A stretch of 50,708 nt of DNA, filler included, from Jimgerdemannia flammicorona (GCA_003990765.1; 2 parts of 2 records of this genome joined end to end with filler, not necessarily neighbours in it), one strand, 5' to 3'. Shown: positions 8,566-44,760, numbered from the whole stretch's first letter. Numbers and translations: made by a program. Notes: generated by a model not told the origin, from the sequence alone.

Positions 8566-8689
8566 AGGAGTATTTATCAGTATCAAGATCACTAAGCTGG
8601 AGCACAAGAAGGAGGAAACTATGAACAAGCATAGCTACACTATTGGAAATAAATTCCCACTCAAGATAGAGCTCAAGAAAATACTCTAT

Positions 8690-9814
8690 AAATTCAAGAA
8701 TGTCTTCACCACAGACTTCAAGGATATTAAAGGAAAGACTCTACACTACTATTATGATGTAGATACTAGAGATACTAAACCAATTTACCAGAAGACAAGA
8801 CCTGTCCCACCAGTCTACTGAGAATGGCTCAAAGAAGAGATCAAGCAGATGGAAGAAGCTGGTATCATCAAGGAGGCCAGCAGTCCCTGGTCTTCACTAG
8901 TTATACTAGTTCCTAAGATAGGAAACAAGTTTGGAGAATTTTCTCCAAGACTCTGCATTGATTATAGAAAGCTCAATGTAGATATCAAGAAGGATTGGCA
9001 ACTACTGCCCCTTATCAATAACATCCTTATAACTCTGGGAGATGAAGCACAGTACTATAGCACCTTGGATCTATACTCAGAATTCCACCAAATTGGACTC
9101 ATAGAAATAGCAAGAAATCAGCCTTCATCACCCCAGATGGAACCTATATCTATCTGTAAATACCATTTAGAATATGCAATATCTCTATAAGCTTCTAGCA
9201 AATGATGAACAAAATCTTTCACTATAACATGGGAAGATGGATGATGGTTTATGTAGATGATGTTATCATCTATAGCAAGACAGCCAAAGGACATCTGCAG
9301 CACATCCAGCAGATAATAGAAAAGCTGAGACAGTATGGTCTTTATATCAAGCCCAAGAAGTGCAAATTCATGGAAATTGAGATTATCTATCTCAGCCATA
9401 TTATTAATCAAGATAGAATGCACACAGATCCCTTCAAGATTCAAGTAGTAGTAGTATACCCAAGGCCCACCACAGTTACCAAAGCCCAAGCCTTCATGGG
9501 ACTTATCTCATACTACTGCCAATTTATCAGAGGATTCTCTAACATCACAGGCCCAATCTATGAACTCAATAAGAAGGATACTAAGTTCCAATAGACTGGC
9601 AGGCAACAAAAAGTATTCAAAGAACTTAAGGTCAGACTGACCCAGATACCTATCCTCAGAAGACCCAATTAGACTTAAGAATTCATCCTGCAGATAGATG
9701 TAAGCACCCAAGGACTAGGAGCAGTCCTAGCCCAAAAGAAAGACAAAGTGGAGTATGTCATTGAATACCTAAGTTAAGGAACCTGAGGAGCTGAAATAGA
9801 ATATAAATCCTATA
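8690..9814 (+). pseudogene. pol: Gypsy-1 reverse transcriptase and N-terminal RNase H
   Basis: SSPWSSLVILVPK, RLCIDYRKLN, STLDLYSEFHQI, VYVDDVII, KPKKCKF, FMGLISYYCQFI, FILQIDVSTQGLGAVL; frameshifts and stops present. Confidence 0.93.
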
Positions 9815-12800: not shown

Positions 12801-15425
12801 TAATATCCAGTCAATCCTAGAGCCCAGCCCAGCCCAGCCATCCAGTGGGTATAAATTCAGCAATCCACCCAAAACTATTGCCCTGAGTCAACCAAGGAGC
12901 TCAATCTCTCAATCTCTATCCAATCATCCAATCCACCACTTCTGCCTCTCATTCCTCTCTCACTATTAGTTCTGTCTATCCCATTATGTTATACTATGTT
13001 GAAATCACCCCCCAGACAATTAATCCCTACCTCACCCATAACACCAGCCTCTCTCAGGTCTCTGATCCAATCTATATATTCCCCCCTCTCAGCTAGACAA
13101 TAACATGACCCAATAGTTAAAGGGTTTCACCCAGGTCTCTTCTATACTCTCCATATCAACCTATTCCCACAATGTTCAATGTCTCCAATATCCCCCATCC
13201 CTTTTCAAACCAGAATGCCCACCTGCCTAGTTCATATAGCTGCCCCACTCCATTCTCTAGTCTAGTCCTATAAGTCTATGTCTATCTCATACTGTTCATT
13301 CTGCAGTAAGATGAGATCTGCATTCAGTCTCCTCAGCCAGCCAAAGATATTTCTTCACCATACTACTCCTCTCAACCCATTCACATTCAAAGAAGATTCT
13401 AGTTATCCTATTCATATTGAAAAATGTTAGATATTGAGAGTACAGTCTAGAATTCTATACTCATTCCATCACTAGTCAGATCCATATACTGCTCTATCTC
13501 CAACTTGTCCTCTGCTAACACCTGAGCATCCAGTACTTCCAAGATTTCCTGACACTCCACCCCATCCACAACCTCTATTTCCATCCAATAATCCATACAT
13601 ACTACTCTCTACTTCTCCAACCCCTTTCTCAAACCCCATAAGTATACTGCCTAGTTATTCACAATCCCCGAAGGGTCTCATTCCTCTGATCATCAACTTG
13701 ATATTCCTCCAACTCCAAGAGTACTACCAGAATCTCATTTCTAATTTACCTCAGTACCTCCTCCCTATGAAGAATTTCCTCCTAATGCCTATCACTTAGT
13801 ATCCAGAAGTCCTCTCCCCCCAACTCCTCAGCTACCACCTCCTCCAGAGTCTTCCACAGCCACTTCTCTTCATTTACTATCTCAGCAACACTCTGGGCAA
13901 CTCTCTCAATCCCCACCACAGGGTCCACCAAAGTACTTCTCCTCCCCAACTCATCTCACTTCTCATCCAGTATGTCTAGTAGATCCTCCTCCCCTCCTGC
14001 CCTGCTTGGGACACCATACTGAGGGTGTACTCTCTCCCTCATTTCTGCATCCTCCACTATGCTGCTCAGTTTCTCCTCATTTAATCCACCCTGGGCTGTA
14101 TTCTGACCCATCCTACACTCTCTAGCCCAGGTGCTCTCCCTCAGTCTAGCACTACCTTCTTCTGTCCTGCTATCTGCTATATCTTCTCTCAGCTTCTCCA
14201 ATAACTCCTTCTGGATTCGCCTCCTCTGTATCTTCTCCCAGGTCCCCTTGTCCATCCTGATCCTCTTTCCATCTATGATCTTCACTACTGTCTTGGCCTC
14301 ATACTTCTTTCAAGCCAGTCTTCTTCTCTCAACTACTCCAGCCAGATCCTCAAGAGTCTCCAGCAAGTCCTCCTCTTCCTCTGGCATTCCTTTCATCCAC
14401 AAGACCTTGCACTCAACTTGTCTTCACTTAAGAGTAGCATGCCAGTCCCCCCCATATTCTCCCTTCTAGTCAGTCTCACTCTGATGCCAACATCTCCTAT
14501 CTGGAGTTCAGTACTCTTCCAAACTCTGAACCTGATGTCCACAATCTCCCCATACTCCTTGACCACCTCTATAATCAGCTCTCTGGCCCTCTCCTGTAAC
14601 ACCATAGGAAGATCCAATACTGTCAACTACACCACTCAGAGATCTCAGCATATACACCTGGCCATAGGAACCATTACTCTACCCAATACTCCCCTCTTCT
14701 CCATGGCCTCTAACAATGATACCTCTTCCTCAAACCCAACCTCAATCTCTTCTTTCCCCTTCAAGAACTTCACTGCAGCTGTCCCCTTTACCTTCTATAC
14801 TACCAACCCCAGAATCATCCTTGTAGTTACTGCTAAATCTTAGAAGTATAATGTGATGGTAAATTCTGACCATGACTTTTTGAGTAATAGTGCTGATACC
14901 ATACCAGTTATGCCATCTGCCAGGTCTCTGGACCTCATGCCCTCTCCCTATTCTGATCCACCAACAACCATCACATCTGGATTTTTTTCCAGATCTCCAG
15001 TTACAGCTCCATCAGCAGTCTCCAGTCCCTACTCTCCCCTACTGCCTGACCCTCCCATGGGGGCCCCTCTCTGATTCCCAACTGCAGCTGTTGATGCTTT
15101 CCCCAGTCCCAACCAACTATTCAGACCAGATGTCATTATCTCCATCTTGACCTTGTCAGCAAAGATCATCCTCCTCCCTCTTTGTTATCTCAATCCACCC
15201 CTCTCTCTATTATCAATACTGCGACCAACCATAGAAGGCTCCAGCATCTCCAAACCATCTCCCTGTCTCCTCCTGATATATTGCCAGTCAAATGCACTAC
15301 TGTCTCTCTGGCTGACATACTCATCAGTACATTTGTTGCTGTCTATATTTATAGTCTCCTTTTATTAAAAATGTTTTGAAAAGTATTGTCTGAGTCTTGT
15401 GTCATCTGAATGTTACCAGTAAAAG
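9815..15425 (-). mobile_element. Full-length LINE family A (ORF1 + APE-RT-zinc-finger ORF2) nested in Gypsy-1 RNase H
   Basis: A-rich tail at the left end; ORF2 starts ~13415 (MNRITRI..LNVNGLR); RT motifs FLNQKKTYDR, GVLQGDPLSPILY, AFVDD; C-terminal QTPEYWLREC; 19-bp TSD atagaatataaatcctata (9796-9814) / atagaatacaaattctaca (15426-15444). Confidence 0.92.
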
Positions 15426-16891
15426 ATAGAATACAAATTCTACAAGTTGGAATATCTTGCAGTCATCTGGGCTGTAGAAAAGTTCCACTACTATCTTATA
15501 AGAAGATACTTCACCATTCAGACAGACCACTCAGCCCTTACCTAGCTACTAACCACTGGGCAACCCAAAGGAATCTATGCCAGATAGATCATGAAGTTGC
15601 AAGCATATGACATAATCATTGTGTACTACCCAGGAAGAACTAATGTTAATGCAGATACTCTCTCATGAATACCCCAAAGGACCCCCAACCAATAAATCAA
15701 CAATGAATAAGAAGCTCTACTATTGAATGATCATCTATCTGAGACAGCAAAAGATGTCCCAATATCTGAAAAAATAAATACAAATGATTATCAACAGAAC
15801 ATGGAAACAATTCAAAACAGATAGAGAAATATTGAAGAAAGGAAAGCTACTAGTCATACTAGAATATAAGAAGGAGTAAGTAATGAAATCAGTATATGAA
15901 CTTAGTTACTAAGAGAAACAAATATATATGATAAAGCAAAAAGAATGATATAGTGGTCAGAAATAGAGGAAGATATCAGATGATTTGTCAAGACCTGTGA
16001 TAAATACCAGAAATAGAAACAGATCAACAAAATCAAGCCCCAGGATCAGTATATATAGAATAAGTACTATTTGCCCACATTGCAATAAATGTGATTGGCC
16101 CTCTACCCTTGACTTTGACTGGCAACCAATACATCATTGTTATTGTAAACCTTTTTACAAAATGGATAAAAGTAAGATCTCTCAAGGAAGTCAATACATT
16201 GTCAATTACTGATTTCTTTCAGAAAGTAATTACCTGCCAGTTCAAGACCCCAACACAAGTAACCACAGACAGAGGAACAGAATTCATAAATCAGTTCTTT
16301 GAGGTTCTCTATAAGAAGTACAAGATCTAGCACATTTGGATCACAGCATACTATCCTCAAGGAAATAGACAGGCAGAAAGAACTAATGAGACTCTCAAAA
16401 ATGTTATTGCCAAGATCTATGATAACTATGAAAACTGAGATCACTATCTGCTAATAGCATTATCTACTCTCTGGGATATTTGATCACAAAGCACCCATTT
16501 CACCTTTTAGGAAATGCTATTCAGAGAAGAAGATTCTCAAGAAACCCTATCATCCAATAAAGATGCTATATGGAAATACATTGATTGAGAGATATAAAGA
16601 CTACACCAAATCAGAAAGAAGGCTGAAGATTATATAACTAAGGTACAGACACTATAACAGAATAATATAGAAAAGATTCACAAGCCTTTGAAGATTATTA
16701 AGATAGGAGACAAAGTCCTGATATATCAGAATATAGTAGAAGCTTTATGATCATAAAAACTAGAGCCTAAGTGGGAAGGATCTTACTTTGTGCAAAATAT
16801 AAAAAAGACTACCTTTTGGCTATAAAAACTCTCAGACACAATCATCTCCACCACCATTCACCAAAACTGACTCAAGAAGTATTATGGCTAG
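15426..16891 (+). pseudogene. pol: Gypsy-1 C-terminal RNase H and integrase
   Basis: LEYLAVIWAVEKFHYYL, PGRTNVNADTLS; integrase FVKTCDKYQK, GPLPLT..GNQYIIVIVNLFTKW, TDRGTEF, YPQGNRQAERTN, KLEPKWEGSY (GPY/F module). Confidence 0.92.
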
Positions 16892-25304: not shown

Positions 25305-25404
25305 NNNNNNNNNNNNNNNNNNNNNNNNNNNNNNNNNNNNNNNNNNNNTTAATTAATTAANNNNNNNNNNNNNNNNNNNNNNNNNNNNNNNNNNNNNNNN
25401 NNNN
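25305..25404. other. Artificial contig-joining spacer
   Basis: Exactly 44 N + TTAATTAATTAA (stops in all six frames) + 44 N. Confidence 0.95.
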
Positions 25405-25623
25405 CATGAGTGTGTCCGCAGGACATGAGTGTGTCCGCAGGACATGAGTGTGTCCGCAGGACACAGGTAAACAATCCTGATCTGGTGTCTTGGCTAATTA
25501 TAAGTGTGGCGGGCATGAGTAACTATGATACACTAGAAGTCACATCATGCTGAGTAAGTATGCTAATTGTTCGTGTCATCCGGCTAAGTTATAATTCAGG
25601 TGGTACGTTTTTGGTCTGTTACA
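25405..25623 (-). mobile_element. Young LTR terminus with three perfect 19-bp repeats (CATGAGTGTGTCCGCAGGA)
   Basis: Ends in ctgttaca followed by GTAC; the segment caggtaaacaatcctgatctggtgtcttggctaattata resembles 48749-48787 of the solo LTR; CpGs retained. Confidence 0.65.
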
Positions 25624-25629
25624 GTACAT

Positions 25630-26458
25630 ATATATATTTCTATTATATATGATAGATATTACCAAAAAGAAAGATATATTACCCATATTTGTTATCTTTA
25701 ACTCTATTAAGTCTATTGTTACTGGTAATAATAATTATATCATTAACCCAAATACTAATAAAGACTATACTGCTATCATTATAATATTGGATATATATAT
25801 AATTATCTGCTTTACAGTAGATGAATCTATCATCAAGAAGATATTTATTAATCTTTTTATTCTACAATTGTGCTACTTGCTTAATATTATATATTTATAT
25901 AGTTTATATATAAGTTCACCTTTTTAATATTCTTACAGTTGATAGATATATAGTTTAGTATCTATGTTACTATTTAGAAATACTGTCTTAATATCTATTT
26001 GATGGATTTTTAGATTATATATATATGTAGTATACTAATTATAAGAAGTATTCTAAGAGAAGTAATCTTGAATATTAGTAAAAATGTCTTGTCATAATCT
26101 ATATCATAATTCTGCAAATTACTCTAAGTAACAAAATGAGCTTTATATCAGTCTATATTTTAGTCACTCTTGTGCTTAATTCTATTAACCTACTTGAATT
26201 CAATTATTAGGCAATTTTATAGAAGAGGTATGAGATTTCACATACTATTCTCAATAAGTAAATTATATTTCTCATTTATCATACATTCTTATTTTTTGTT
26301 ATCTTAGAATTATATGACTTTCTTATATTTATTTATCTCATCAGATTTTGCAATATATATCTATTTATATACTTCAGCATAGCTTATCTGATCTTGATAT
26401 TGCTATTATCTAGGGCTAACTAGTATATCTCAATAACTTCCTAATTTGGAATCAAACA
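25630..26458 (-). pseudogene. Ty1/Copia reverse transcriptase relic
   Basis: Minus-strand YKAHFVT*SNLQNYDIDYDKTF (YKARLVAxGF..GIDYxETF), HQIDIKTVFLNSNI, IYNIKQVAQL*NKKI (LYGLKQA), IWVNDII (YVDD). Confidence 0.85.
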
Positions 26459-29168
26459 TAGGGTTAGGCTTTAAGTAAGGATTTATTCATTATAGAGAAG
26501 ATAAGGAGTTATAAATAGCAAAGACTTCTAAGATGAGAAAAATAAAAAGAGAGCAGTGAAGTAATCAACTAGCTAAAAAGAACAAACCAAAGACCAGAGA
26601 GGTAACCACCTTATGGATAAACTGGAGAAACCTTTTAGTCATATCTATAAGGATAAAAAAATACAAAAATCAAAAAGAGAGAAGCTAAAATAAAATATAC
26701 AAAAGCTCAGCATCAACTGGAGACAATATTGACCCCAAACACTAAGTAACTAATATGAGATATATAACTCAATATACTCTCAACAATAAAGAAATATATG
26801 AAGGCAAATGAGGGGAAAGATTAAAATAAAAAAAATATGCAATTGCTCAATTACTTAAGTATCTTCATAATTTTGGTCAGATAGGATCTAACTGTAACAT
26901 GGTTACTTGAATTATACATAGCATCTATAGCATAATAGGTTATCTTATAAAGAGCATGAAGAGAGTAGATACAAAGTTCCTTTAACCATTCATCACTGGT
27001 GAACCAATTGAGTTGTTCATGACCAAGATTACCTTAGAAGACAGAATACAAACTGTTGAGAAGACTGCATCCATAGAGATAACTATGATGAAACTTATCT
27101 CCACAGAAGTAGAGGCAGGGTTGTCTAAAGTAGTTATAATACTAGACAAGAGCAGAGAGCATAAGTTGGGAGGAAAAGAAAAGGATATGATCAGTCCTCC
27201 ATGATTGTAAGCTACTATAGAGTGTGATGTACCAAATGACAGCCTGAGAAGAGAGGGCTCATTCCTATAGTAGCTGATCTCAAATGAAGGACTGGGGGAA
27301 GGATTAGAGTAAGTGAGTCTTACAGACCATCTCAGTACTAGTTGAGCCAAGAGGTTCAATATAAGAACTTATCAATGATAGAACCTAGGAGATGTATAAC
27401 AAAGCACTCTCTAAGAGGACCAATGGGGTTATTACCAGACTTACCACACTAATCCAAATAAGCTTAGAATATATAGCAGAGGTCTGATATATGATAAAGA
27501 AAAGAAGAGAGGCCAAGAATTAAACTGCAAAGTAAGGATTGGCTGGAAAATCCAACTGCCCAAGCAACATTATCATCGAAGACCTATTTGAGATATTTCA
27601 GCAACTGAAGCCCCATAGTAGTAGCTAGATAGGAAGCTTATAGAAGTAAAAGGTCATACTCTAGCTAAGGTCTAATGAAGATATATATAATAGCTAGCTT
27701 GACCATTAGCGACCAGAGGGGACTATAGATATAGTAGAACTCAAGAGTTCATTCTGCCTAAACTCTATTCTATAATATTAGACTGATAAAGTCAAATTTG
27801 TTATTAATGTATGGTATGCTCAGGTACACATAGAAAGAGGGTTGCAGATATGGCTTACCCACAATCAGAATAGTATAGTTGGCCAGGCCAACACAACTAT
27901 ACTTCTTGGGGTTAAGCTCTATATTATTTACTATAAGCCAATTCTCACAAACATTAATCATCCTCTGGTTCTCTGTAGTAGTACAGGAGATAAGAGTGAT
28001 ATTGTCAGTAAAGAAGAGCCTAAAGAGGAAGTTATACTTCTTAAACTACATATTAAAGAAGATGGTGAGAGGGTTAAGAATATATCAAAGAGCTAAGGAG
28101 AGAGAAGAGAGCCCTGAAAAAGACTATGCTCAGTGGGAACCAATGGAGTAACTAGGCCATTGATAACTAATTGATAGGAATAGTGGTTGAACAGACTTCT
28201 GATAATGCTAAGGAGGGCTGCATTGGCTCCTTGTACCTCAAGTTAGGAGAGAATAAGCTTGAGAGAGACTTGATCATATGTCTGCTGGAGATCAACAAAG
28301 GTATAGCAGTCTCATCTCTTAGCCATATCTTATGTGAGAGTAAGGTATAATAGAGAGATGAGAAGTGAATTCAGAAGCTACAATGGCAATATAACATTTC
28401 TGTCAAATAACTTTGGCTCTTGATATAGTCTTTCAAATACTACTCAAAGTATTTACAAAATATCTTGATAAAAGTGATAGTGTGAAAACTATCAATTATC
28501 TGAGACTCCTCTTTCTTGGAGACTGGGGAGATAATGGCAGAATTTCAGCAGCAGAGAGTAAGCCTCTAAACTATATATAGCTAGAAGAAGAAGAATAAGA
28601 TTTTCAACAAGCTGTAGAGGATATGCTTCTTACCTACTATTATCCAAAGGATCCAGATATGTAAGGAGTTAATACTACAGATCTTTGTGAGGTAATAGTA
28701 GTAAATGGCCCTCTAAACCATAGGTTGGTCAAATCAGGATAGTAGCCCAAGAGCCTTCACACTAAGAGAGAAAATGTCCTTAGAGTCATTGAGATGTAGA
28801 ATGGTATTCAGTTAGTTGAAGATAATCATAAAATAGGAAACTATATCATTAAACACCTAAGAACAGAGGAGTGAGATTAAAGAGAGGCAGGAGGAATAGA
28901 GTGATATGTTTGCTTAAAATTATAAATAGTATCAGAGACTGAGAATATATTATGAAAAAGGTTCTTTTATAAAAGTAGAACCACTCTAATTTCTCTAGCA
29001 TCATATGTGTCCTAAATGTTCTTTTAGATGGATAGTAGATTAGAGTAGAGGTCAAGAGAGAGTTAAGAGAATCCACTAATAGCTAGTAATTTTCTACAGA
29101 GTGAAAGCTGGAATATGATTATAAATAGAGTAGATAGACTTAATAATGATATTACAAATGATATCAAA
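26459..29168 (-). mobile_element. LINE family B copy 1, 5'-truncated just downstream of the APE domain, with a telomeric 3' tail
   Basis: RT motifs SLFQGSLLS and LFFTDNIT; colinear with 29184-31783; 3' end aataaatccttacttaaag followed by CCTAACCCTA. Confidence 0.88.
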
Positions 29169-32100
29169 AGGGTTAGGGTTAGGCTTCAAGTAAGGATTTA
29201 TTCATTATAGAGAAGAAAAGATATATCTGAGCAATAAATGGCAAAGACTCCTAAGATGAGAAAAGCAGAAAGAGGCCAGCGAAGTAAACAACTAGCTAAG
29301 AAGAATAAAACAAAGGCCAGAGAGGTAACCACCCCATGGATGGGCTAAATAAAACCATTTTGTCATAGCTATAAAGATAATAAATACAAAAAGCAAGAAA
29401 GAGAAAGGCTAAGATAAAATACACAAATACCTGGTGCCAACTACAGGAATAATATTGACACTTAAATACCAAATGACTGATATGAGATATATAACTCAAT
29501 GTACTCTCAACAATAAGAGAACCAACTGAGGTAAATGAGGGGAAAGAAAGAAGTGAAGAAAATGTGTAATTGCTTGATTACCCAAGCATCTTCATAATCT
29601 TGATTAGGCAGAACCCAACCATGAAGTGGCCACCAGAATTATATATAGCATCAATAGCATGATAGGCTGTCTAATGAAGAGTGTGTCGAGGATAGGTATA
29701 AAGTTCTTCCTGCCATTCATCATTAGTAAGCTAATTGAGCTGTTTATTACAATCAGAATTACATTGGAAAGCAGAATATAAACTAGCAGAAAGACTGCAC
29801 CTGAAGAGATAGCCATGATGAAACTTATCTCTACAGAGGCAGGGGTGGGGTTGGCCAAAATAGCTATAATACCAGGCAAGGGCAGAATGCATAAGCCAGA
29901 GAGAAAAGGAAAGGATACAGTCAGCTCTTCTGAACTGCAAGCAGCCTCTGGGGGTGATGTACTAAATGAGGGCCTGGAAGGAGGAGGCTCATTCCTGGAG
30001 CAGCTGATCCTAGAGGAATGACAGAAGGAAGAAACAGAGTAGATAAGTCTTGCAGAACTGAGAACAGAGATCCCAGTACTAGTTAAGAAGTTAAGCTAAG
30101 AGGTCTAATACTATAACTTATCAATAATAGAACCTGGGGGATGTGTGACAAAGTACTCACTGAGAGAGCTGATGGGGTTGTTGTCAGACTTGCTACACCA
30201 ATCCAGATAGGTTTGGAATATATAACAGAGGTCTGACATATGATAAAGAAAGGAGAGAAGGCTAAGAATTGAACTGCCAAGTAAGGGTCACCCAGAAAAC
30301 CTGATTGCCCAAGTGACAGCATTATTAAAAACCTGTTTGAGATACTTCAATACCTAAAGTCTTATGGTAGTTACTGGGCAGAAGGCTCATAGAAGAGGAA
30401 GGCCATACTCCAGCTGAGACCTAATGAAGATATGTATGATAGCCAACTTGACTATTAGTGACCAGAGGGGGCCCTAGGTATAGCAGAACCCAAGAGTTCA
30501 TTCTGCCTTCACCATATTCTACAATGCAAGACTGATAAAGTCAAACCCTTTATTAGTGTATGATATGCCTCGGTATATATAAGAGGGGGGTTGCAGGCAG
30601 GGCTCACCCCCAATCAGTCAGTAGAGCTAATATAACTATACTTCTTAGGGTTGAGTTCCATATCATTCACCAAGAGCCAATCCTTATAAAAGTCAATTAT
30701 CTTTTGCCCCTCCACAGTGGTGCAGGGGAGTGAGGGCAAAATCATTAGCAAAGAAAAGTCAATGAATACATCAAAAAGCTAAGAGGAGAGGAGAGAGTCC
30801 TAGAAGAGGCTGTACTCAGTAAGGACTGAAGAGGTGAAGAGGCCAGTGACAATAACCTGATAGGAACAGTGATTGAACAGACTTTTAATAATACTAAGGA
30901 GGGCTGCATTAGCTCCTCATTCCTCAAGTCAGGAAAGAAAGACCCATGTCTTATATAAGAGCAAGACATGGGAAAGAGATGAGAAGCAGGTGTAGAAGCT
31001 ACCTTGGCAGCATGACATTTCTCTCAGACCACTTCAGCTCTTGACATAGCCTTTCAAGCACTGCTTAAAGAGTCAGCAAAATATCTTGGTGAGAGCAATA
31101 GGGTGAAATCTATTAATTATCTGAGATTTCTCCTTGGGAACTTGAGTGATAATGATAGTATTCTAGTAGCAGAGAGTGAGCCCCCAAACTATACACATCT
31201 AGAAGAAGAAAGACAAGGCTTTAAAAAGACTACAGAGAGTATCCTTCTCACTCACTATTATCTAAAGGATCTGGATGTGCAGGGAGTCAGCCCCACAGGC
31301 CTTCATGAGGGAGTAGCTGCAGATGGCTCTCCAAACAGCAGATTGGTCAAACCAAGACTGTAGTCTAAGGGCTCCTATACTGAGGAAAAAGATGTCCTCA
31401 GAGTCATCAAGACATAAGGAGGTATCCAGCTAGCTGAAGATAGTAGTAAAATAGATAACTACATCATTATACACTGAGATAGCAGGGGAGTAAGATTTCA
31501 GAAGAGTGGGGGGGGGTAGAGTGATACACTTACTTGAAATCTCAAATAGCATTAGAGATCAAAGATATACTGCAAAGAAGGTCCTGCTAGGGAAGCAGTG
31601 CTGTCCTAATCTCTCTTACATCATATGAGCCCAGAATGTCCTCACAAATAGACTGCAGACCAGAAGTCAAAAGAGAGTCAAGAGAATCCACAAATTTTTT
31701 GTGATCTTTCAAAGAGCAAAAGCCAGTGATATAGTCCTGGACAGAGTAAATGGATCTGACAAATAGTATTACAAACAATATCTACTGATTCCCAGAGATA
31801 AGCTTGAATGACTGAATTATATTTCATAAAGTAGCAGCAGATACCAGCCAAGATAGGAACTAGTAAGAAAGAGAAGGAAAAAGAAACAGTGAGAAGGGAG
31901 GGGTAGTCAGTAGCAACAGGAGGGATAGAGCAGATGAGGGATACATAGAGAGATGTAGTGGCAAATACATGATCAATATATGTGGATCTAGCAACTGAGA
32001 TTAAGTAGTTCAATGATCATATTATCAAAGAGGTATCAATAATGTCCATCTAATCCTGAGGACCAGAGTTGATATTACCAAGATGGGCACCAAAGTGTAT

Positions 32101-32999
32101 ATTAATGTCACCAATCATAAGAGTCTTGTCTGAAAAGAGACCAGATATAAAATCATAAAAGCAACTAATGAGAAGAGAGAGAGAGACATAGAAACTGACT
32201 AATGCCAGCCCCTGGAATATGAGTTAGATATGGAAGAGGTTGGTGGAGAACTTAGAAATAAAAGAGACAAAATGGTTTAACATAAGGACCATGAGACCAC
32301 CATTCTGGTGATCCACAATCCTATACAATGCTAGAGAAGAGGACATATGAATAAGTAGAGAGAGATATAGTAGAATATATATGCTATATTTCACATATGA
32401 AAAGAATGTTAAGGGTAGGACCATTCAACTGACTGAGTATATCAAACTTGTTCTGAGTTAGTCCATGGACATTCAGAAACCTGACTCTCATTGTGGGCTA
32501 GGTGCATTAGTGCTAATACATGGAAAGTACTTGAGGAGGAAGCTTTGACTTCTAAATTCATTGCCATCTCCTCAGTCATAGCTACAGTATCATCTACCTT
32601 CAAAGTAGGGCTAGCCAATAGAGGGGCAAGGAAGGAGAGAGTGAGGCCAAGTTCCATGACTTATACCTTATAGAAGATCTGTATCTTGGGCCTCTTCATA
32701 GTAGTATTGACAAGCAACTACCAGATCTGGGTATAGAAGGATTGGAGGATCTATGTCTTTATGACCTCTATGGCATTCTTATTATGGGGAAGCACAGGAT
32801 CCCAGACTGAAAGCACTGAGAACCTAAGTACCTTTATCTTCTTTTAGAATACCATAATATAATTAGAGTATAAGAGAAATTCAATAATTGATATCAAAAT
32901 ATATGACATATTGAGGATATTGGACAATATTACATAGACATCATATAAGTTCTTCTGGATCTGCCTGATCTTGAGATGGGCAAATGTGTTGACATAAAT
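29169..32999 (-). mobile_element. LINE family B copy 2 (partial ORF1 + complete decayed APE-RT ORF2) with a telomeric 3' tail
   Basis: ORF2 ATG at 32491: MRVRFLNVHGL..NILFICEI*H, NGGLMVL, MIGDINIH, YIDHVF, ATDY (APE); FHPIALT, FFANDFAL (RT); ORF1 remnant 32999-32500; tail agggttagggttagg at 29169-29183. Confidence 0.9.
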
Positions 33000-33071
33000 G
33001 GTTAGGGGCAGGGCTAGGGGTAGGCTAGGGTTAGGGTAAGGGTTAGGGGTAGGGGTAGGGGTAGGGGTAGG
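33000..33071 (+). repeat. Interstitial telomere-like array (~12 TTAGGG/variant units)
   Basis: Visible TTAGGG, CTAGGG, GTAGGG, TAAGGG and GCAGGG units. Confidence 0.9.
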
Positions 33072-33135
33072 CTTCAAGTAAGGATTTATTCATTGTAGAG
33101 AAGACAAGATACATTGGAGCAACAAAAGACAAAGA
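33072..33135 (-). mobile_element. LINE family B copy 3, 3'-terminal ~64 bp only
   Basis: cttcaagtaaggatttattcattgtagagaag...caaaga matches 29184-29247. Confidence 0.88.
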
Positions 33136-33139
33136 TGTT

Positions 33140-36100
33140 GAATCAATGATCTTTGGAAATCTTTTGGGAGTCCTATTCTCTTCAATATTTCCTCCAGTCA
33201 TATATACTGAACTCTGTCATATCCCTTCTCTTGATCTAGAAAGACAAGTTAGCCATTTACCATAGTTGCATGAGTACTCTCAATGATACTATGAACCCAT
33301 GCCATCTTATCTCAAATCAACTACCCACTAACAAATCTCCTTTGCTCAGTCCCTAGTACCTACTGAGACACCTCTTATAGCCTAGCCACCAAAATATTCA
33401 TCACCAATTTACAATCCATATCTAGAGGTATGATCAGTCTCCAGTTCTTGCAATCCTCTCTCCTCACCTTATGCTTATACAACAGAGTGATAAGCCCTAG
33501 GCACTATCTCCCAATCCAGGACCCTGAGCTAATAACCTTATTATACATCTATATTATCTCCTCTAATACAACTGAAATGTTAGCCATCTTCTTCCAAAAA
33601 TCTCAAGACAGCCCATCCTCCCCAAGGGCCATCCCCATACTTGTCATTGCCAAGACTCAACATACTTTCTCTCTACTCACCATGCCTCTAAGTCTACTCA
33701 GGCCCATAACTGGGACCAGTTACCAATCCTCCAACTGACATCCAATGTCAAGGGCATCTTCTCCCCCCTTCTTCTCACTCTACAGCTATCCCTAGCAAGA
33801 CTACAATATGCCCAGGATCCTAGGTGTCTCAGTCATCATCTCTTCTGCCTCATCCAGCACTCCCTCCTACTACTGCTTTTCTTCCTTGTCTGTAGCAGTC
33901 TTGATAGGAATCTGGAGTAGGCCATTCTCTCTTCTCTACTCTCTACAATCTCAGCCAAGCTACCAACCCTTATATCTGTAATTTCTCCTCCTATCTCAGC
34001 AGGCTTTTCAGTTCATCAGTCTCCTGTTGAATTCTCTGAATCCTCCAATCCCCTACTCTGCCATCTTCTAATGATCCCACTCATCTCTCCAGTAAATATG
34101 CCAGCCTTTATGAGGCCCACTGAATACACCACCTCTGCTGTGCCCTCCCTCTCTCTCCCTGCCTCACCCCAGTACTTCTGAGCATCTGATTTCAACTATT
34201 ACTAATGATCTCCTTTCTCCAACCCCTGTGCCCTCCAGCCAACCACCTTAGTGCTAATCTCTACTACCCATTTTCTCTACAGAGCACTATTCCCCAGCAA
34301 TATAGTGTTCAGATGTCAGTATTAAGGCCCAACTCTACTACCCCCAAATTTTTCTCTGCCCAGCAACCCCCAGTGGTCAGACTAAGAGGACCAGACTGTC
34401 TCAATCTCACTCCAGACATCTGCACCCCAGCACTCAGCCATCAACACCCAGTCTATCTAGGATCTCTGTCCTACCACCCAGTGAGTATAAACCCTATGAT
34501 CAGCCCACCCAAGTCTCCTGGTATCCACCAAAGAACTCAGTCTCTCAATCTCCTCTCAGTCCTCCATCTCTCTACTTCTGCTTATCATACCCCTCCTTCC
34601 ATCTGTCCTATCCAATCTGCAATCATGTATTATATTAAAGTTACCCCACAGACTGTCAATCCCTGCCTCCACCAGAACACTGACCTCTCATAGACCCCAG
34701 ACTCAATCTACTTGTTCCCCCCTTTCCACCAAGCAATAGCATAAATCCACAGTCAGAAGACTCCAACCTAACCTCCTCTATACTCTCTACACCAATTAGC
34801 TCTCTGAATGTCCAATGTCCCCAATGTCCCCTGCCCCCTATCTGACAAGAATGCTCACTCAACCCTACCACACATTCCTTCATCCAGTCTAGTAAATTCA
34901 AGTCTGCATCATAATCCATGTCCTGCAGTAAGAAAAGATCTGCATCCAGCCCTTTCAATCAGCTAAAGAGATTCTGTCATCTTGTCATAACCCTCAGTCT
35001 ATTGATATTCAAAGAGAAGATTTTACTTATACTGTTCATAGTTAGCAAAGTTTTTCAAGAGAGAGTACCCATTCTACAATCCATGCTCATCCTATCACCT
35101 GCAAAATCTAAGTTTCTTTCTACTTCAACCTCATCTGCCTCTCCTTGCTGAGCCTCCAATACCACCAGGATCTCCTGATAGTCCACCCAATCTATAACCT
35201 CCATCTCTGACCAGTATTTCTTGCAATCCACTCTCCACTTTTCCTGCTCATTCCTCAGTCCCCATAGTAGGCCATATGATTATTCATAATTACTCAAAGT
35301 ACAGACTCCCTGGTATCATCCACTTGATAGGTTTCAGCCTCCAGTAGTACTACTATAATTTCATTATGGATTTTCCTTGGCACCTCCTCACCCTATAGAA
35401 TTTTATCCCAGTGCCTCTCACTTAGCACCTGAAAGTCCTCTCCCCCAACTCTTCTGCCACCACATTCTCCAGTATCTTCTACAGCCACTTCCCTTCATCC
35501 ACAGCTTCCTCAACTCCCTCAGCTACTGTCTCTGCCCCCTCTGCCTGCCCTTCCTTGGTGTTCCTCCTTTCCAACTTATCCCATTCCTCCACCAGCACAT
35601 CCTGCAATTCCTCCTCACCAGCAATCCCTCTAGACACTCTATACAGAGAGTACTCTCCCTCAACCATCTCCTCATCCTCTACAACTATATATACCCTGGA
35701 ATCTCCTCCCACTCTCTGGAACATCTCCAGGGTCACCTCTTTCTCCCTTATCCAGGTACTCACTAGCAAACCAGTCTCTCTAGTGGCAAACCCCTCTACC
35801 ATCCCCCTTCTTAACTTCACCAATAGCTTCTTTGGAATCTGCCTCACCTGTGTGTTTTCCCAGAGAACCTGGTCCATCCACACCTTCTTGTCATTGACTA
35901 CCTCAACCATCATTCTAGCCTTATACTCTTTCTAAGTCTTCTGCCTCCTCTTGACTGCCTCCATTATATCCTCCAGTATCTCTAGCAAGTCTGCCTCCTT
36001 CTTCTGAGTCTCCACCACTCTTGACACCATATATTCCATAGAACTCCACCTCAGCACTGCAGGCCAGTCCCTCTCTTTTTCAGTATTCTCCTTCTCTACC

Positions 36101-37388: not shown

Positions 37389-40300
37389 ACATTTTTCTCT
37401 AGTAACATTCAGATTACACAACCTTCTGGCAATACTTATAACACAGTTTTTATAGAAAAGATACTAGTATTCTGGTAACTGATGAGCATTCTGAGGTGTG
37501 TACTAGACAGAGTGGCCCTGGTACATTTGACTGACAGTATGTAGAGAGGGGCCCTGGCTTGGGGTGAAGCATGAGGGGCCTGCTTGCAGGAGGACATAGT
37601 AGGAGAGAGTGCAGTGCTGGAGGTCAGGGGACAGAGAGGGCAAGCTTTGCAGATAAGGTGAAGGGAGGTCAGCAGAGAGCTGGACTGGAGGGTTGGCTAA
37701 GGAGGGACAAGGAGATGGCAATAACTATAGGGCAGTGGCTTTAAGAGAGAGTCTCCCTGGGGGGTCAGAGTAGTGGAGCTATTGGTATAGCAGCTGAGGG
37801 GGTGACTACTGATAGGAGTGTAATAGACAATCTGGAAAAAAATCTAGATGGGACTGCTGATGGTAGACTGAGTGGTAGAAAAGATATAAGGTCTAGTGAC
37901 TTGACTGATAGTGTAATGGAACTGGTAGTGATACTGTTACTCAAGAAGTTAATCTCAGAGTTTATAGTTACTATACTTCTAGGACTTGATAGTAATAGCA
38001 AAAATAGTCTTAGGGCTGATTGTGAAGCAGATGGATAGAGTGGCATAAGTGAAGTTTCTGAACAGTTTGGAAGGTTTGAAGGTGGGCTTTGAGAAGGCCA
38101 AGCCATTGGAAGCTATGCTGAATAGAGTTGACTATTGGGAAGATATGTGTTCTGATAGCATGATGCTTGAGGTGGGACTCCAGGATGGTACAACTTCTAG
38201 TGAAAGACATGCCTATAGTGACTGCTATAGAGATAAGGAGAAGAGTGGAGGAGGTCATGACTGAGTATAGAGAGGTGATTGATGTTGGCTTCTGGGTCTG
38301 GGAAGGGACCTTATTCAGGATAGGAGATATTAATGTTTGGCTTCAGCTGGCAGAGAGAGAGGCTACCAGGAAGACTCATGATTGGCAATCAGTGATAATG
38401 TGGGGGGCCTTTATGTGCAAGGTAATGAGGGTGAAGGGGAATGAGGAAGAGGAGGAGGATTTGTTAGAGATATAGTAGAGTGGTAGAGCAGAGAGTGAAG
38501 GCTTGGAAGGTATATATGGAGTCAATGCATTTGAAGATCATGGATGGAAAATGGGTCCACATTAACAAGAGGCTGTGAGAGAGATCTCAAGAGCACAAGA
38601 GGTAGATGGAGTTGTTGGTAAGCCTGGAGGAAAGGATACAGAAGGATGCTGATAGTATTGAGGAGTCTGGGGGCACAAAGGTGAGTGTCTGGGCCAGTAA
38701 AGAAGGAGGGGATGTGGAGAAGGGTCTGGATGGGGTCAGGAAGATGCCAAGCAATGATCTATATGCCAATGGTATTTTTGAAGTCTGGAAGGATACCCCT
38801 CCTCTTGTTAGGCAGGGTCCAGCTGTGAGGGGCTAGGTGGCAGAGGATGTACCAATGTGTGGTGCCCAGTGAGTGCACTTTGGAGTTTCTGAGGTAGCAA
38901 GAGGGGGTCAGATGGCAAGGATGAACTAGTGGATGTCCCAGAGGAGGAGTAGGATGAGATAGTAAGTATGGGGGCAGATATCTTGATATTGGGTACAGGA
39001 AGGCCAGCAAATCTAGGAGAGAAGGAAGTGGGAAACCTTCTATAGATATGCTGGATGATAAATAACTTTGTAGCTGAAGATTTGAAAGAAGTAGACCTGA
39101 GAGTGATGAGTGATGAGCATTGGGTATGGATGCTACATAGTGATAGAGTGATGGAGGTGCTGACGGCAGAGATACTTGCAATTTATCTGGAGAAGGAAGG
39201 ATATGAGGTTGATAAGGAGAGAGAGGCCAAGCTGGTGGTTGCTGCTGGTGAGAGGGCTGCCTTCTGTTGGGCAGAGCATCATGGATTGCAGCTCTGGCAG
39301 AAGGCCTATCTGGAGTATCATGAGAACTTTAAGGAAATGAAGAATAGTGAGATAGCTGAACTTCTGGTTAGATTGGAGATTAAGATGGCTGAAGAGAAGG
39401 AAATGGCTGTGGAATATAACTTAGACTTGGAACAGAAGGGGATGAATGTGGATTTATAGAGGAAGAAAATGACACTTAACATTATCTCTTATGAATAATA
39501 TACTCTATGAATATGGAATATTTTTATATAGATGAAGGGATTGGAGGCTGATATTTTTCTATTGCAGGATATCAGATGTGAGGATGACTTAGATAGAATG
39601 GAGTGGATGAGGGAATAGGGAGATGTGATAGTGTGGAAGGGTAAGGTTGAGATCTCAGTTTGTAGAGGCAAAGGGGAGATATAGGATGTGGAGGGCTGGG
39701 GGGAGTGGCTAGTGTGGAGAGAGTGGTGTCAACCAGGTTGAGAGCTAGTTACCATGGGTTCATGCTACTGCTCTGCTATATAGGGTGAGAAAGTGGAGTG
39801 GGTGGAGGGTCTTAGAGAGAGTGGGGTCCTCATGGAGACAGAGTGGATATTCTAGGAGGGAACTTTAATATGGTCTGGGACATAATAGTGGATAGGACTG
39901 ATGGAGAGAGGGGTGCTGAGGGTAGGAGTGGGGGCCTGGTAGTATGGGAGAATGTGGAAAGGCTGGGCTCTCTGGTAGATACTGAAAGGGAATTCTGGGG
40001 AGATAGAAGAGTATATATACACTGGATGAATGGCCTGGAGTTAAGGATTGACTGAGTGCTGACAGCAGATTGCTGAGGGCTGAATGTTTGGAAGTCACTA
40101 GAGGCTGAGTAGAGTTCATAGTCTGATCATTGGGGGCTATTAGAATAGGGACATTTTGGGGGGAGTAAGGATGGGCCTGGATATTGGTGTCTTAATTCCT
40201 CTTTGTTGGCTAAGAAGACATTATGAGACAAGTGGGCAGAGGATATTCAGCAGAGGGTATAGAGTTGGGTACAAGAGGTTGTCACAATTGGTATTCAGTA

Positions 40301-43112
40301 GATAAGGTTGAAGGTGGTCACTAGGATTTATTGGAGAGAGGCAGGAGAAGTGGCAGGCAGACAGCAGAAAAGGAGGGTAAACTGGGCTTCTGTTGGACTA
40401 GCTTGACTTTTGGAGAATTGGGCTGATCTTTTGGCCCTAGAAGGGGTGGAGGACTGGTTGTTGAGCCAGGCTAAGATAAAGATCAATGAGCTATAACAGG
40501 TGTTAAGAGAAGAAGAGAAGACACAGGTGCAGGGTTTGGCTGTCTGATTATGCTGGCAGGGGCTTGAGGAGGGGAAGAGGCCATCTAAACACCTCTCAAG
40601 GATCCTGTGAGCAAGGAGGGTAAGGCAGAGGTGGGAGGGGGTACTGAATTCTGATGGACTATTGGTATATGGTTCACAGAACATTCTCGGCTTGCTCAAG
40701 GAGAGGTGGAGCAGTTTGTGAAGTAAGGAGGAGGGTGGGGCAATGGCTGCTACTATTGCACATGCTTTGGAGGATAGGCACTCACCACTAGTAGTGTTAC
40801 TGGTTCAGGAGGAGGAGATTTGTTAGGTTCTTGCTATAACTATGTTGAGCACAGCACCTGGAGAGGATGGGCTGCCCTGGGACTTTAGAAAGAGGATGCT
40901 GGGAGTATCTGGGGTACTGGGAGAGATAATAGTGATATGTGATTTGGTACTACAGTCAGGAAGATGGGTGAGAGAGCAAGATCTGGGGCTGGTGATACTG
41001 CTTTATAAGGACAAGAGTAAAAGAGAGAACTGGAAGAATTTGCAGCCCATCATGCTTCTGGACATGAATAGGATGTTGGTCACTAAGATAGTAGGAGCAA
41101 GGCTGAAGAAGGTGGCCCAGCAAATTTTAGGTGAGGAGCAGCAAGGTTTGTGGGGGGCTGGCTCATTAGAGATGGTACAGTCTGGGTGCATGGTGTTATT
41201 GAAGAGACTAGAGCCTGTGGACTGGATGAGAGGCTGGTCTTCTTGGATTAGAAGAAAACTTATGACTGTGTACAGCAAGTCTGGCTAGCAAAGGTTCTGG
41301 ATATAATTGGTATCTCTCAGCAGTTTCAGATAGCAATGATCAGCCTACTGAAAAGGAGTTGAGTGGTACTTATGTGTAATGGACATAGAGGAGTAGCATT
41401 CCCTCTGGAGAGAGGTATACCCCAGGGAGACCCTCTGTTCTTGATTTTGTATACTCTGTCCTTAGAGCTATGAATGGATAGAATTTGGTAGAAGATAGTG
41501 CGACTCTCTATATTCCAAATTGTTTGGAAGGTTGGAGCCTTTGCTGATGATATGGTAGTCAGTCTGGGGTCATTTGCTGATGTTGAGGAACTCTGGGAAA
41601 TGGTGGAGTGATATGAGACACACTCTGGTGCTAGACTTAACTGGTACAAGTTAGAAACAATAGTGATTAGTAATAGTCTGGTGGGAGGGGATGTCATTGT
41701 TCCAATTGTCTCTGCTGGAGAGACTGTGAGATACTTGAGCATTTATCTCTCCATGTATGGGTCAGTCCTGATATATACTTGGTGAGAGTAATGAGTGGCC
41801 ATCAGGGGAGAGGTTCTGAGAGATTGGGGAGGCTACCACCTGTCTTTGGCAGTGTGCATTGCAATTTTGAATGTTTACTGACTACTGAAGAAATTGTGAT
41901 ATTTGGCATATCATCTGGACTTTTCAGCCTAGGTGGTGGAAGAGACTATTGAAGCTGGCAAAAGATTGGATCTGGGCTGAGCAGAGAAGTAAGATTAGCT
42001 GGGAAATCTTGTCATTGCCAGTGGCTAGAGAGGGACTTGGGTTGGTTGACTTCCTGAAGAGACTACATTGTCTGTGAGCATGGTGGCTGAAGAGAGCAGT
42101 GGAACTGAGGAAGAAGTTCTGGAAGATGAGATGCTTACCAAGAGAAGTGACTGGAGATTTACTGTCCTTGGTTGGGCTCCCTAATAGGGAGTGAATGAGA
42201 TATAAGTGCTTCTAGTAGAAGTAGTTGATGGGGCTCACTGCATAGGAATTTGCTGGTAGAGAAATGAAGGAGAGGTGCCTTGGGGCCCAGTGATGTAGAG
42301 ATAGGATTGAGTGCTACTGAGGGGCACCCCCCTTATAGATTTTGATATTGGGGATGGGGTAGAGTGCCAGAGGAGGATGGGACAGGATGCATGGCCTAGT
42401 AGCTAGTAGATGGTAGGTTGGAGAGGAGTGAGATTGGAATAGAGTCTGGGCCTAGAGTGTAGCAGTAAGGCAATAGTTGAAATCCAAGTACAGTGAGGTT
42501 TGATGGTACATGCTATAGAGGAATGTTATGCTCAACTTTCACTCAGACCACCTAGTGGAGGGAGGGGACTTTGATGGTGAGGAGTGCTATAATATAGAAC
42601 AGGAAGGGGGGTTTGTACAGATGTCAGAATATTGGCTGGGAGAGTATGAGGTACTTAGAGACTTTTGGTTAGTGGTTGGGAATAAGTTAGATATAGTATA
42701 TAGGGGGGATGGAGAGTAGAGATGATGGGAGGATCTGAGAGATAGATTGGTGGTTGGGGTGGGAGGGAGTGGCTGACTTTGGGTTGAATATTAGTAGTGT
42801 GGGTAGGACTAGCAGATTACTGACTGTTTGTGTTTGAGGAAGGAAAGCATTTGAGTTTGAGGGAGCAGTTGGTGAGGTGGGAAGGGTTGATGGAGGACGT
42901 TTTGATGGGCTGGTTGTTGGGATGGGGCCTGCAGGGGAGTCAGAGGTACCATTTGGTAGAGAAAATCTATAGACAGAGTGAGGGGAGAGTTGGAGTAGTG
43001 GGTAACAGAGTAGTTTTCAAGTATGAGAGTATGGGGGGGGGCTCCCTAGGAGTATTGGGAAGTGTGAAGGAAATATGTGATAGATTGGTAATAAATGGCA
43101 AAGTCTGAGTGA

Positions 43113-43154
<42 letters not shown>
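37389..43154 (+). mobile_element. Full-length decayed LINE family A
   Basis: 5' motif tttctctagtaacattcag; ORF2 from ~39469 (ILGGNFN, APGEDGLP, GIPQGDPL, AFADD, QMSEYWLGEY); poly(A) 43114-43154; TSD core tcaaagctgta at 37374-37384 and 43157-43167. Confidence 0.92.
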
Positions 43155-43480: not shown

Positions 43481-44760
43481 ATGGGCAACACAGGTAATAT
43501 GGGTAATACAGGTAACATGGGCAAGATGGGCAAGATGGGCAAGATGGGCAAGATGGACAAGATGGCAAGATGGCAAAACGGGTGATATGGGCAAGATGGG
43601 CAGATGGCTAGACAAGTGATATGGGCAAAACAGGCAAAATGGGTTATACATGTAACATGGGCAATATGGGCAACATGGGCAATACAGGCAACATGGGCAA
43701 TATGGGCAATACTGGTGGGCAAGATGGGCAACACAGGCAAGATGGGTAAGATGGCAAGACAACAAGATGGGCAACATGGGCAAGATGGGTAAGATGGACA
43801 AGACAGGTAAGACAGGTAAGATAGATAAGATGGGTAAGACAGGCAAGATAGCAAGATGGCAAGATGGCAAGATGGCAAAACGGGCGATATGGGCAAGATG
43901 GGCAGATGGCAAGATAAGTGATATGGGCAAAACAGGCAAAATGGGTAATACATGTAACATGGGCAATATGGGCAATATGGGCAACACAGGCAAGATGGGT
44001 AAGATGGCAAGACAACAAGATGGGCAACATGGGCAAGATGGGTAAGATGGACAAGACAGGTAAGACAGGCAAGATGGATAAGATGGGTAAGACAGGCAAG
44101 ATAGCAAGATGGCAAGATGGGCAAGATGGGCAAGATGGGCAGATGGCAAGATAGGTGACATGGGCAAAATGGGCAAAACAGGCAAAACAGGCAAAACAGG
44201 CAAAATGGGCAAAATGGGGAAAACAGGTAACACAGGCAACACAGGCAACACGGGCAGGAAACACAGACAACATAGGCAACATGGGCAACATGAGCAGGCA
44301 ACACAGGCAACATGGGCAACACAGGTGGGCAACATGGGCAATATGGGTAACATGGGTGGGCAACATGGGCAATACAGGCAATATGGGCAATATGGGCAAT
44401 ATAGGTGGGCAAGATGGGTAAGACAGGCAAGACAGCAAGATGGGTGACATGGGCAAGATGGGTAGATGGCAAGACAGGCAACATGGGCAAGATGGGGAAA
44501 ATAGACAAAACAGGTAAAATGGACAATATAGGCAATACAGGCAACATGGACAACATGGGCAACATAGGCAATATGGGTGGGCAAGATGGGCAAGATGGGC
44601 AAGATGGGCAAGATAGACAACATGGGCAAGGCAGGCAAGATGGGCAATATGGGCAACATAGGTAACAAGGGCAACATGGGCAGGCAAGACAGGCAAGATG
44701 GACAAGATAGCAAGATAGCAACATGGGCAATAAGGGTAGACAAGATGGGCTAGATAGACA
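43481..44760. repeat. 9-bp minisatellite (GGCAAGATG/GGCAACATG family) with a ~300-bp higher-order duplication
   Basis: Directly visible; the block starting ~43564 recurs at ~43866. Confidence 0.95.

Follow-up and report, generated by a model that had tools for sequence, protein, structure and literature searches.

Telomere-repeat tails on the arrayed, decayed copies of an APE-type LINE and across its relatives

Do telomeric repeats at the 3′ ends of a retrotransposon that lacks long terminal repeats (a non-LTR element) have a part in its insertion, or are they a simple-repeat tail with no tie to telomeres? The question is raised by a locus in a 50,708-nt stretch of Jimgerdemannia flammicorona DNA (GCA_003990765.1; two genome records joined end to end with filler; hereafter the window). 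Positions 26459-33135 of the window hold an array of three co-oriented, 5′-truncated copies (A, B and C) of one long interspersed nuclear element (LINE), all on the minus strand. We found that the telomere-repeat tail of this element is conserved across a deep clade and is not a quirk of the window locus. The initial annotation had described three copies in the same orientation with telomeric-repeat 3′ ends and without poly(A), and the array bears this out. A 25-nt 3′-end motif occurs at three sites in the window, all on the plus strand, and nowhere else in it (26467, with one mismatch, 29182 and 33070); the plus-strand sequence directly before each motif is a G-strand telomere-like run (10, 15 and ~72 nt, respectively), and poly(A) and other A-runs are absent from all three 3′ ends. 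On the sense strand, the copies end in ...AATGAATAAATCCTTACTT(G/A)AAGCC, followed by C-strand telomere units, and each 3′ end has the same layout of AATAAA, 13 nt and C-strand telomere units. The array is composed of the following features, in which the coding regions are open reading frames (ORFs) 1 and 2, with APE denoting the apurinic/apyrimidinic endonuclease domain, RT the reverse transcriptase and UTR the untranslated region.

26459-26468, minus strand: telomere-like tail of copy A (plus strand TAGGGTTAGG, sense CCTAACCCTA), with unrelated AT-rich DNA on its left side
26469-29165, minus strand: copy A, decayed and 5′-truncated, with the RT and C-terminal part of ORF2 and a 3′ UTR with AATAAA
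29166-29168, minus strand: three extra A (sense T) between the truncated 5′ end of copy A and the tail of copy B, from direct reading
29169-29183, minus strand: telomere-like tail of copy B (plus strand AGGGTTAGGGTTAGG, sense CCTAACCCTAACCCT)
29184-32999, minus strand: copy B, the longest, with the 3′ UTR, ORF2 and the C-terminal domain of ORF1, inside which it breaks off
~32491 to ~29500, minus strand: ORF2 of copy B, its end estimated from the family ORF2 length of ~1000 aa
32491-31768, minus strand: APE of copy B, from tblastn alignment of relatives' residues 3-255
32491-30309, minus strand: part of copy B aligned by tblastn to relatives' residues 3 to ~806
31153-30732, minus strand: RT motifs of copy B, read by eye
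32999-32475, minus strand: C-terminal domain of ORF1 of copy B, from alignment of relatives' ORF1s
33000-33071, minus strand: degenerate telomere-repeat block of TTAGGG, TAGGGG and CAGGG units (period 6, 11.7 copies)
33072-33135, minus strand: copy C, reduced to the terminal 64 nt of the 3′ UTR, AATAAA included

Copy A with its tail (26459-29165) aligns with positions 6-2614 of copy B at 70-72% identity, and the copy C match spans 79 bp, including the overlap with its tail (33057-33135), at 87% identity. Sensitive blastn and tblastx searches revealed no further pieces of the family elsewhere in the window. Telomere-like 12-mers with at most one mismatch are found at the three array junctions and otherwise only at 19474 and 50284, with a chance estimate of ~1.3 per window. 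The degenerate block at 33000-33071 both caps the truncated 5′ end of copy B and acts as the tail of copy C. The annotated pattern of truncated copies followed immediately by telomere repeats holds directly for copy B and, after the three extra A, for copy A, but it does not extend to copy C, the 5′ end of which adjoins an internal point of a different, 3′-truncated LINE in the same orientation, starting at ~33136-33142. The right flank of the array is that other LINE from ~33142 (z 111). Insertion of the array into this neighboring LINE with both halves kept was considered and rejected, as the DNA on the left of the array does not belong to it (z 1.0 and 2.6). The array is flanked by other decayed repeats over 26 kb on one side and 17 kb on the other. 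In agreement with the initial annotation, no convincing target-site duplication (TSD) was found around it. A direct repeat that matches at 10 of 14 positions (26445-26458 and 33136-33150) lies immediately outside the array, with p ~0.005 against random pairs of window segments, and may be either the TSD of a founding insertion or a chance match; we lean toward chance because all four mismatches are transversions in a sequence whose decay is transition-driven and because the left flank does not belong to the same LINE.

The kind of element from which the copies derive is apparent mainly from its relatives. The RVT_1 match of copy A is weak and below the cut-off (Pfam E 4.6e-5, 23.7 bits, against a cut-off of 29.6); Pfam returned no match at E <= 0.1 for the read-through frames of copy B, in which decayed copy the APE domain was thus unseen by this method; and the longest ORF of copy B (29607-30095) had no match in a word-based search against longer proteins. 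A phmmer search of 1.84 billion representatives with the read-through frame of copy B as the query returned 164 matches at E <= 1e-3 (the best two at 7.5e-37 and 1e-29), in which the full-length proteins have ~1000 aa. Among seven relatives scanned with Pfam, RVT_1 was detected in five, including all five full-length ones (E down to 9e-31), and Exo_endo_phos exceeded the cut-off in two (P0152 and P0004, starting from residue 9-12); none of the seven contained ribonuclease H (RNase H). When aligned back to the window by tblastn, the relatives' RT matches both copies A and B (in copy A, residues 524-806 at 28305-27455), and their APE matches copy B as listed above, in accordance with the annotation of an APE-type LINE. 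In an alignment of 15 relatives, N10, E36, Y106, D131, N133 and H207 are invariant and D206 is nearly so, and we take these residues to be the APE catalytic positions. The motifs FLNVHGL, GDINIHFG, YIDHVF and TDYPSLL of copy B correspond to YLNVxGL, LGDINxRxG, VDHVF and TDHPLL of the family. The C-terminus of the relatives' ORF2 contains a C-x2-C-x7-H-x3-C motif followed by ~65 residues, and their consensus has no RHD or KPD block of the kind found in restriction-enzyme-like (REL) endonucleases. An ORF1 of ~230-670 aa is located just upstream of ORF2 in the relatives, with no Pfam family among the eight ORF1s scanned. The homology to 10 of 18 relatives' ORF1s, which align on the minus strand from approximately residue 270-500, begins exactly at 32999, so copy B is broken inside ORF1. 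Judging from these comparisons, the element is a non-LTR retrotransposon that has no RNase H and is composed of two ORFs, ORF1 and ORF2, the latter with APE at its N-terminus, an RT, and a CCHC motif in its C-terminal part. Among solved structures, the family profile best matched human L1 ORF2p, collinearly over APE and RT (E 8.8e-46); it matched R2 in the RT only (E 1e-31) and had no match at E <= 0.01 to TRAS1 or R1 endonuclease chains. In the protein atlas, the matches fall in generic RVT_1 and Exo_endo_phos clusters, and no Rfam family, hammerhead included, was detected in the window or in the loci of six relatives.

For the closest full-length protein, relatives with a named source were found in Calcarisporiella thermophila, Tilletia indica, Tilletia laevis and Sporobolomyces ruberrimus; the named matches that follow, one from a flatworm and one from a fish, score much lower. 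In a FastTree phylogeny of 77 rows, copy B forms a long branch within a starred 21-row clade that also contains the Tilletia and Calcarisporiella proteins. This placement indicates that the element belongs to a deep clade in which the named members are fungal, from Basidiomycota and an early-diverging fungus. The family occurs in many lineages in environmental DNA. The earlier description of the element as fungal agrees with these relatives, on which the label is based here; the host telomere repeat is presumed to be TTAGGG.

The tail was followed through the family in a metagenome scan with the family alignment, in which 80 loci (412 kb) were kept, chosen by protein patterns only. A tail run was defined as a perfect (CCCTAA)n run of at least 11 nt. 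Runs on the sense strand number 56 and occur in 41 of the 80 loci, and runs of the G-strand number 7 in 3 of the 80 loci, five of the seven lying within the inverted terminal array of a single locus (L073); the chance estimate is ~0.6 per strand in 412 kb. The orientation of the element relative to the repeat is thus fixed. After removal of five near-identical duplicates, 51 loci were eligible, that is, the ORF2 C-terminus was present with at least 150 nt beyond it. In 35 of these, a sense run lies within 1.2 kb after ORF2, and a G-strand run is found there in none of the 51, which confirms the claim that the coding strand is collinear with the C-rich strand. The tails of the 35 positive loci are 11-28 nt long, AATAAA is located 2-17 nt upstream of the tail in 16 of them, and at none of the 35 does an A-run take the place of the tail. 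The relatives' junction resembles that of the window, with AATAAA, ~10 bases often ending in CTTAA..CC and then the units, and the last 10-15 nt of the UTR resemble degenerate telomere units. Tail-bearing loci are present in all three main subclades of the FastTree phylogeny. In two subfamilies, copies that are probably from the same organism share a common boundary between UTR and tail and have different downstream flanks, and are therefore separate insertions, each with a short tail. Two further repeat features of these loci were observed: variable tandem repeats inside long 3′ UTRs, detected as self-matches in L031, L033, L034, L035, L042, L053 and L055, and, near a contig end in L028 (position 4986), five-base (CCTAA) units, CCTAACCTAA. 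That the telomere-like runs are coincidental, or that repeats were mis-assembled, is suggested only by the general risk of collapsed repeats; the three window copies differ by 13-28% and are therefore not assembly duplicates, and the same junction is found again at 35 of the 51 loci, which are unrelated and were drawn from many samples, so we regard this explanation as practically negligible.

We consider it fairly probable that the telomere-complementary 3′ end of the element's RNA pairs with the 3′ ends of G-strand DNA, either at nicks made by APE or at chromosome ends, and so primes cDNA synthesis, because the tail is conserved, fixed in strand, identical to the telomere repeat and located where poly(A) would be. 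According to this model, the family transcript would end, 9-17 nt after AAUAAA, in two to four CCCUAA units that would base-pair with a G-strand DNA 3′ end. Because APE is conserved, this end would usually be a nick made by the element's own endonuclease in TTAGGG-like sequence, which telomeres and short interstitial tracts offer and which would be supplied above all by the tails that earlier copies carry; sometimes, as L073 may exemplify, it would be a natural or freshly healed chromosome end. The RT would then extend the G-strand 3′ end. The expected outcome would be a sense strand collinear with the C-strand, a 5′ end pointing toward the chromosome tip, 5′-truncated copies and same-direction arrays with short telomere tracts, and such arrays, together with very short tandem 3′ fragments, would arise because the best partners include earlier tails. 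The anatomy of the element, its family membership, the conservation and strand of the tail, the arrays and two telomere-associated cases are observations; the RNA 3′ end, the target of the APE cut and priming by pairing are inferences.

Arrays of this kind recur among the relatives, with copies arranged head-to-tail in the same direction in L032, L058, L060, L064, L065, L070 and L012. In L032, the tail is followed by a 2.7-kb truncated copy; in L058, two families are in tandem; L060 and L070 contain 3′ fragments of 200 and ~140 nt in tandem, respectively, and L012 contains a 30-nt 3′ fragment with a tail. At least two runs are present in 11 of the 41 loci that carry any run. Two loci are associated with telomere arrays at contig ends. 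At the start of L035, 98 nt of CCCTAA repeats directly cap a 5′-truncated copy; the copy in L037, which is 99.3% identical, extends further upstream. L073 ends in (TTAGGG)18, below which there are two tail-bearing units of ~800 bp, each with a proximal tail and a distal body; the innermost tail is joined to a LINE copy that breaks off at approximately residue 840, with 9-12 nt of telomere repeat at this junction. The orientation of the terminal array of L073 matches the prediction, although its two units belong to a different element and not to the LINE. The claim that the 5′ end points toward the tip agrees with the orientation at the contig-end telomeres of both loci. The ~800-bp unit, with a 3′ end unlike that of the LINE and a CCTAACCC-type tail, was observed in L073 (3627-5374), L076 (3921-4733), L060 (5632-6466) and L065 (~4500-4996), where it sits head-to-tail with LINE copies; possible identities are a non-autonomous partner and a further family with tails of this kind. 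A separate ~280-bp unit ending in CCTAACCCTAA is in tandem downstream of a full-length LINE copy in L001 (5478-5804).

The same tails and arrays could be those of an ordinary dispersed LINE, in which the CCCTAA units are a 3′ microsatellite kept by slippage of the RT and have no functional tie to telomeres, with the arrays produced either by target-primed reverse transcription (TPRT) in which tail pairing tends to strike earlier tails or by jumps between templates during a single event. The shortness of the tails, their varied and non-telomeric downstream flanks and the lack of upstream telomere runs in full-length copies are as expected for such an element; its conserved APE residues make a chromosome end unnecessary, and the tandem 3′ fragments of L012, L070 and the window (79 nt in the latter) fit abortive synthesis or template jumps. 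What this account leaves poorly explained is that the exact canonical telomere unit, always the C-strand, has been kept across tail-bearing lineages with ORF2 proteins only ~30-40% identical, that the UTR terminus itself resembles degenerate telomere units, and that in 2 of the 80 loci a long telomere array at a contig end is directly joined, oriented as predicted, to copies of the family or to copies with such tails. Tail units in other LINE clades drift between families. We therefore consider the microsatellite account possible but doubtful.

Several observations nevertheless weigh against priming by the tail at telomeric DNA. The tail is missing from 16 of the 51 eligible loci, and one subclade is mostly tail-less; L004 has A-runs of 24 and 22 after ORF2 (2895-2945), and L016 has A-runs of 8 and 9 (1794-1851), so the family may include lineages with other tails. 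Approximately 17 of the 35 positives derive from a single sample group and two subfamilies, which reduces the number of independent lineages to perhaps 18-20. The AAUAAA signal suggests cleavage and poly(A) addition, which would have to be explained away by internal priming. Most of the relatives' tails are 11-21 nt long and followed by non-telomeric DNA, and no telomere run precedes the 5′ end of the full-length copies in L007, L012, L013, L038 and L043; most insertions are therefore not within telomere arrays. No TSDs were seen by eye in L065, L066, L058 and L038, where few copies have both ends judgeable. Most insertions may be products of ordinary, dispersed TPRT, for which homology over a few bases would suffice. 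The window array itself is not at the window edge, and its right end joins another LINE instead of telomere repeats. The earlier proposal of RNA-tail priming combined with recapping of truncated copies is thus upheld in part: the tail is conserved, strand-fixed and found at contig-end telomeres, but many relatives are dispersed copies with non-telomeric 5′ flanks, most of them in assembled, non-terminal contexts. This suggests that APE-driven insertion with an RNA-borne tail accounts for the dispersed relatives at least as well as addition to chromosome ends does.

The condition of the copies bears on the history of the locus. Across 2560 aligned bases, copies A and B share 73.4% identity, and 559 of their 682 differences (82%) are transitions; CpG dinucleotides number 2 and 3, compared with 79 and 105 expected, and the observed/expected CpG ratio of the whole window is 0.071. 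Because of this low identity, transition excess and CpG loss, the copies are regarded as old and as destroyed after insertion by C-to-T-type transitions. Copy B contains 67 stops in one frame, and a ciliate genetic code was rejected, as the frames stay closed under it. All copies are dead, and the locus is a fossil without present function. Copy A is more decayed than copy B, with 351 sites at which A has T or A and B has C or G, and 208 sites with the reverse.

This asymmetry is the age order predicted if the copies were added, without an endonuclease, to eroded or broken chromosome ends that were then recapped by telomerase in a repeated cycle, which would make the window array an internalized former end with copy A proximal. 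Such end addition would also account for the order of elements in L073, from a broken LINE through the short repeat and the two tail-bearing units to the terminal telomere, for the telomere that caps the truncated copy of L035, for the tail of copy A, which meets unrelated DNA through just 10 nt of repeat, and for the junction of the 5′ end of copy C with a 3′-truncated LINE of the same orientation. Endonuclease-independent L1 insertions can resemble the latter junction. However, APE is conserved in the relatives, most of whose copies are in assembled, non-terminal contexts; the asymmetry between A and B is weak, and local mutation pressure differs along the array (GC 0.32-0.41); and the terminal units of L073 are not copies of this LINE. 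Such an end-addition system, which is the boldest form of the initial annotation's proposal, is in our assessment improbable. A broader scenario combines both routes: an ancient and widespread APE-LINE clade would have converged with endonuclease-lacking Penelope-like elements and with MoTeR-type elements on a telomerase-template-like RNA 3′ end, which any G-strand 3′ end could prime; it would insert internally by means of APE and also attach to eroded or broken ends, alternating with telomerase, building terminal arrays and healing breaks, with the window array as a fossil chromosome end and with unrelated short elements such as the ~800-bp units (L073, L076 and L060) mobilized in trans through recognition of the tail alone. 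We put this scenario forward tentatively and think it unlikely as a whole. Returning to priming by pairing of the tail with G-strand 3′ ends, it may produce arrays by any of three routes: successive additions at ends that telomerase recaps, insertions nested within earlier tails, or template jumps in one event.

How the family compares with known telomere-associated elements depends on whether arrays, endonuclease or 3′ end are considered. HeT-A, TART and TAHRE of Drosophila and GilM and GilT of Giardia also form head-to-tail arrays of 5′-truncated copies at chromosome ends with their 3′ ends proximal, but they have no telomere-complementary tail and show poly(A) at their junctions; their clades are different ones, and telomerase is missing from Drosophila. 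The I factor, with (TAA)n, and the eel element UnaL2, with (TGTAA)n, have no poly(A) and carry a short tandem unit after the 3′ UTR, probably kept by RT slippage, but these units are unrelated to the host telomere repeat. The L1 clade, which provided the best match among solved structures, has a poly(A) tail, which is seen neither at the three window 3′ ends nor at the 35 tail-bearing loci. TRAS-type elements have a sense strand collinear with the C-strand, and TRAS and SART have poly(A) tails and are sited within long repeat arrays. The present family differs from these animal elements in its lack of poly(A) and in its short tails. In the window, copy B has telomere-like runs on both sides, as does copy A through the tail of copy B, whereas full-length relatives have no 5′ run and only the short downstream tail. 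Two Bombyx mori elements of the R1 clade, TRAS1 and SART1, and the green anole element Tx1-1_ACar resemble the present family in being APE-type and in having a fixed orientation relative to telomeric repeats, and they are described as telomere-specific APE LINEs in PMC10088271 (which cites Repbase Reports 2013 for the anole element).

The closest match in 3′-end design is provided by the Penelope-like elements (PLEs) Athena and Coprina, which lack an endonuclease, carry a few telomeric repeats in reverse complement at the 3′ terminus and become attached to G-overhangs, according to PMC8557442. They differ from the present family, which combines a LINE-type RT with APE, in their PLE-type RT, the lack of any endonuclease and the presence of hammerhead motifs. 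Among fungal LINEs, MoTeR1/2 of Pyricularia oryzae, the FoTeRs of Fusarium oxysporum and Cnl1 of Cryptococcus share the tipward 5′ end, TAACCC units after the 3′ end and arrays with truncated copies, whereas their RT is followed by a C-terminal REL endonuclease and they belong to the CRE/SLACS clade, unlike the present family with its N-terminal APE, its ORF1 and many dispersed copies (PMC12857005). The same paper gives the REL motif set as CCHC ... RHD ... E ... K/RPD and reports 3-8 TAACCC units directly after the 3′ end of the FoTeRs, which were seen only at telomeres; it agrees with the statement of the initial annotation that known fungal telomere LINEs use REL (PMC12857005). The tandem repeats inside the relatives' 3′ UTRs recall the variable-number tandem repeats of MoTeR and FoTeR described there (PMC12857005). 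An APE-type fungal LINE with CCCTAA tails was not found described in the literature within reach of our search; Repbase Reports, supplements, a 2007 PLE paper and a 2009 survey of fungal non-LTR elements were outside its reach, and an earlier description is possible.

The whole window (1-50708) is a graveyard of decayed repeats, in which the differences between repeat copies are mostly transitions, a pattern that suggests methylation-linked C-to-T change or change similar to repeat-induced point mutation. A second, unrelated LINE family occupies ~10000-16000 (minus strand), 33136-~37700 (minus strand) and ~38000-43154 (plus strand), with G and C very unequally shared between the strands (GC skew to -0.55 and +0.54) and with 40 nt of poly(A) at 43115-43154; its copy at 33136 is 3′-truncated exactly at copy C, by ~1.75 kb as estimated from the copy with poly(A). 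Just after this poly(A), a 1.2-kb minisatellite (43517-44730) consists of ~137 copies of the 9-bp unit ATGGGCAAG with 70% matches. At 8219-9591 (plus strand), a dUTPase ORF (8219-8818, Pfam E 5e-16), for which a word-based search against longer proteins returned no relatives, is followed by an RT fragment (E 1.5e-12); together they are probably a decayed LTR-type retroelement carrying dUTPase. Two 44-base N runs (25305-25348 and 25361-25404) adjoin a perfect tandem repeat of 19 bp × 3.1 at 25405-25463.

Telomere-associated retrotransposons inform on how parasites become builders of chromosome ends and on the relation between telomerase and retroelements. The designs known so far, as represented in the sources cited above, are poly(A)-bearing APE LINEs that cleave telomere repeats (insects and anole), REL-type LINEs (fungi, Giardia and trypanosomes) and endonuclease-less PLEs with telomere-complementary tails. 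The present family is an apparently new combination, in which APE and a PLE-like telomere-complementary tail occur in one LINE family, and the value of the finding lies in this family, the window locus being a fossil. If the tail does prime, it would represent an independent origin of telomere-repeat-primed reverse transcription, and the family would offer a natural system for studying whether endonuclease-dependent and end-primed integration can coexist in one element. It would also account for short interstitial telomere tracts and same-direction arrays of transposable elements in repeat-rich genomes such as the present one.

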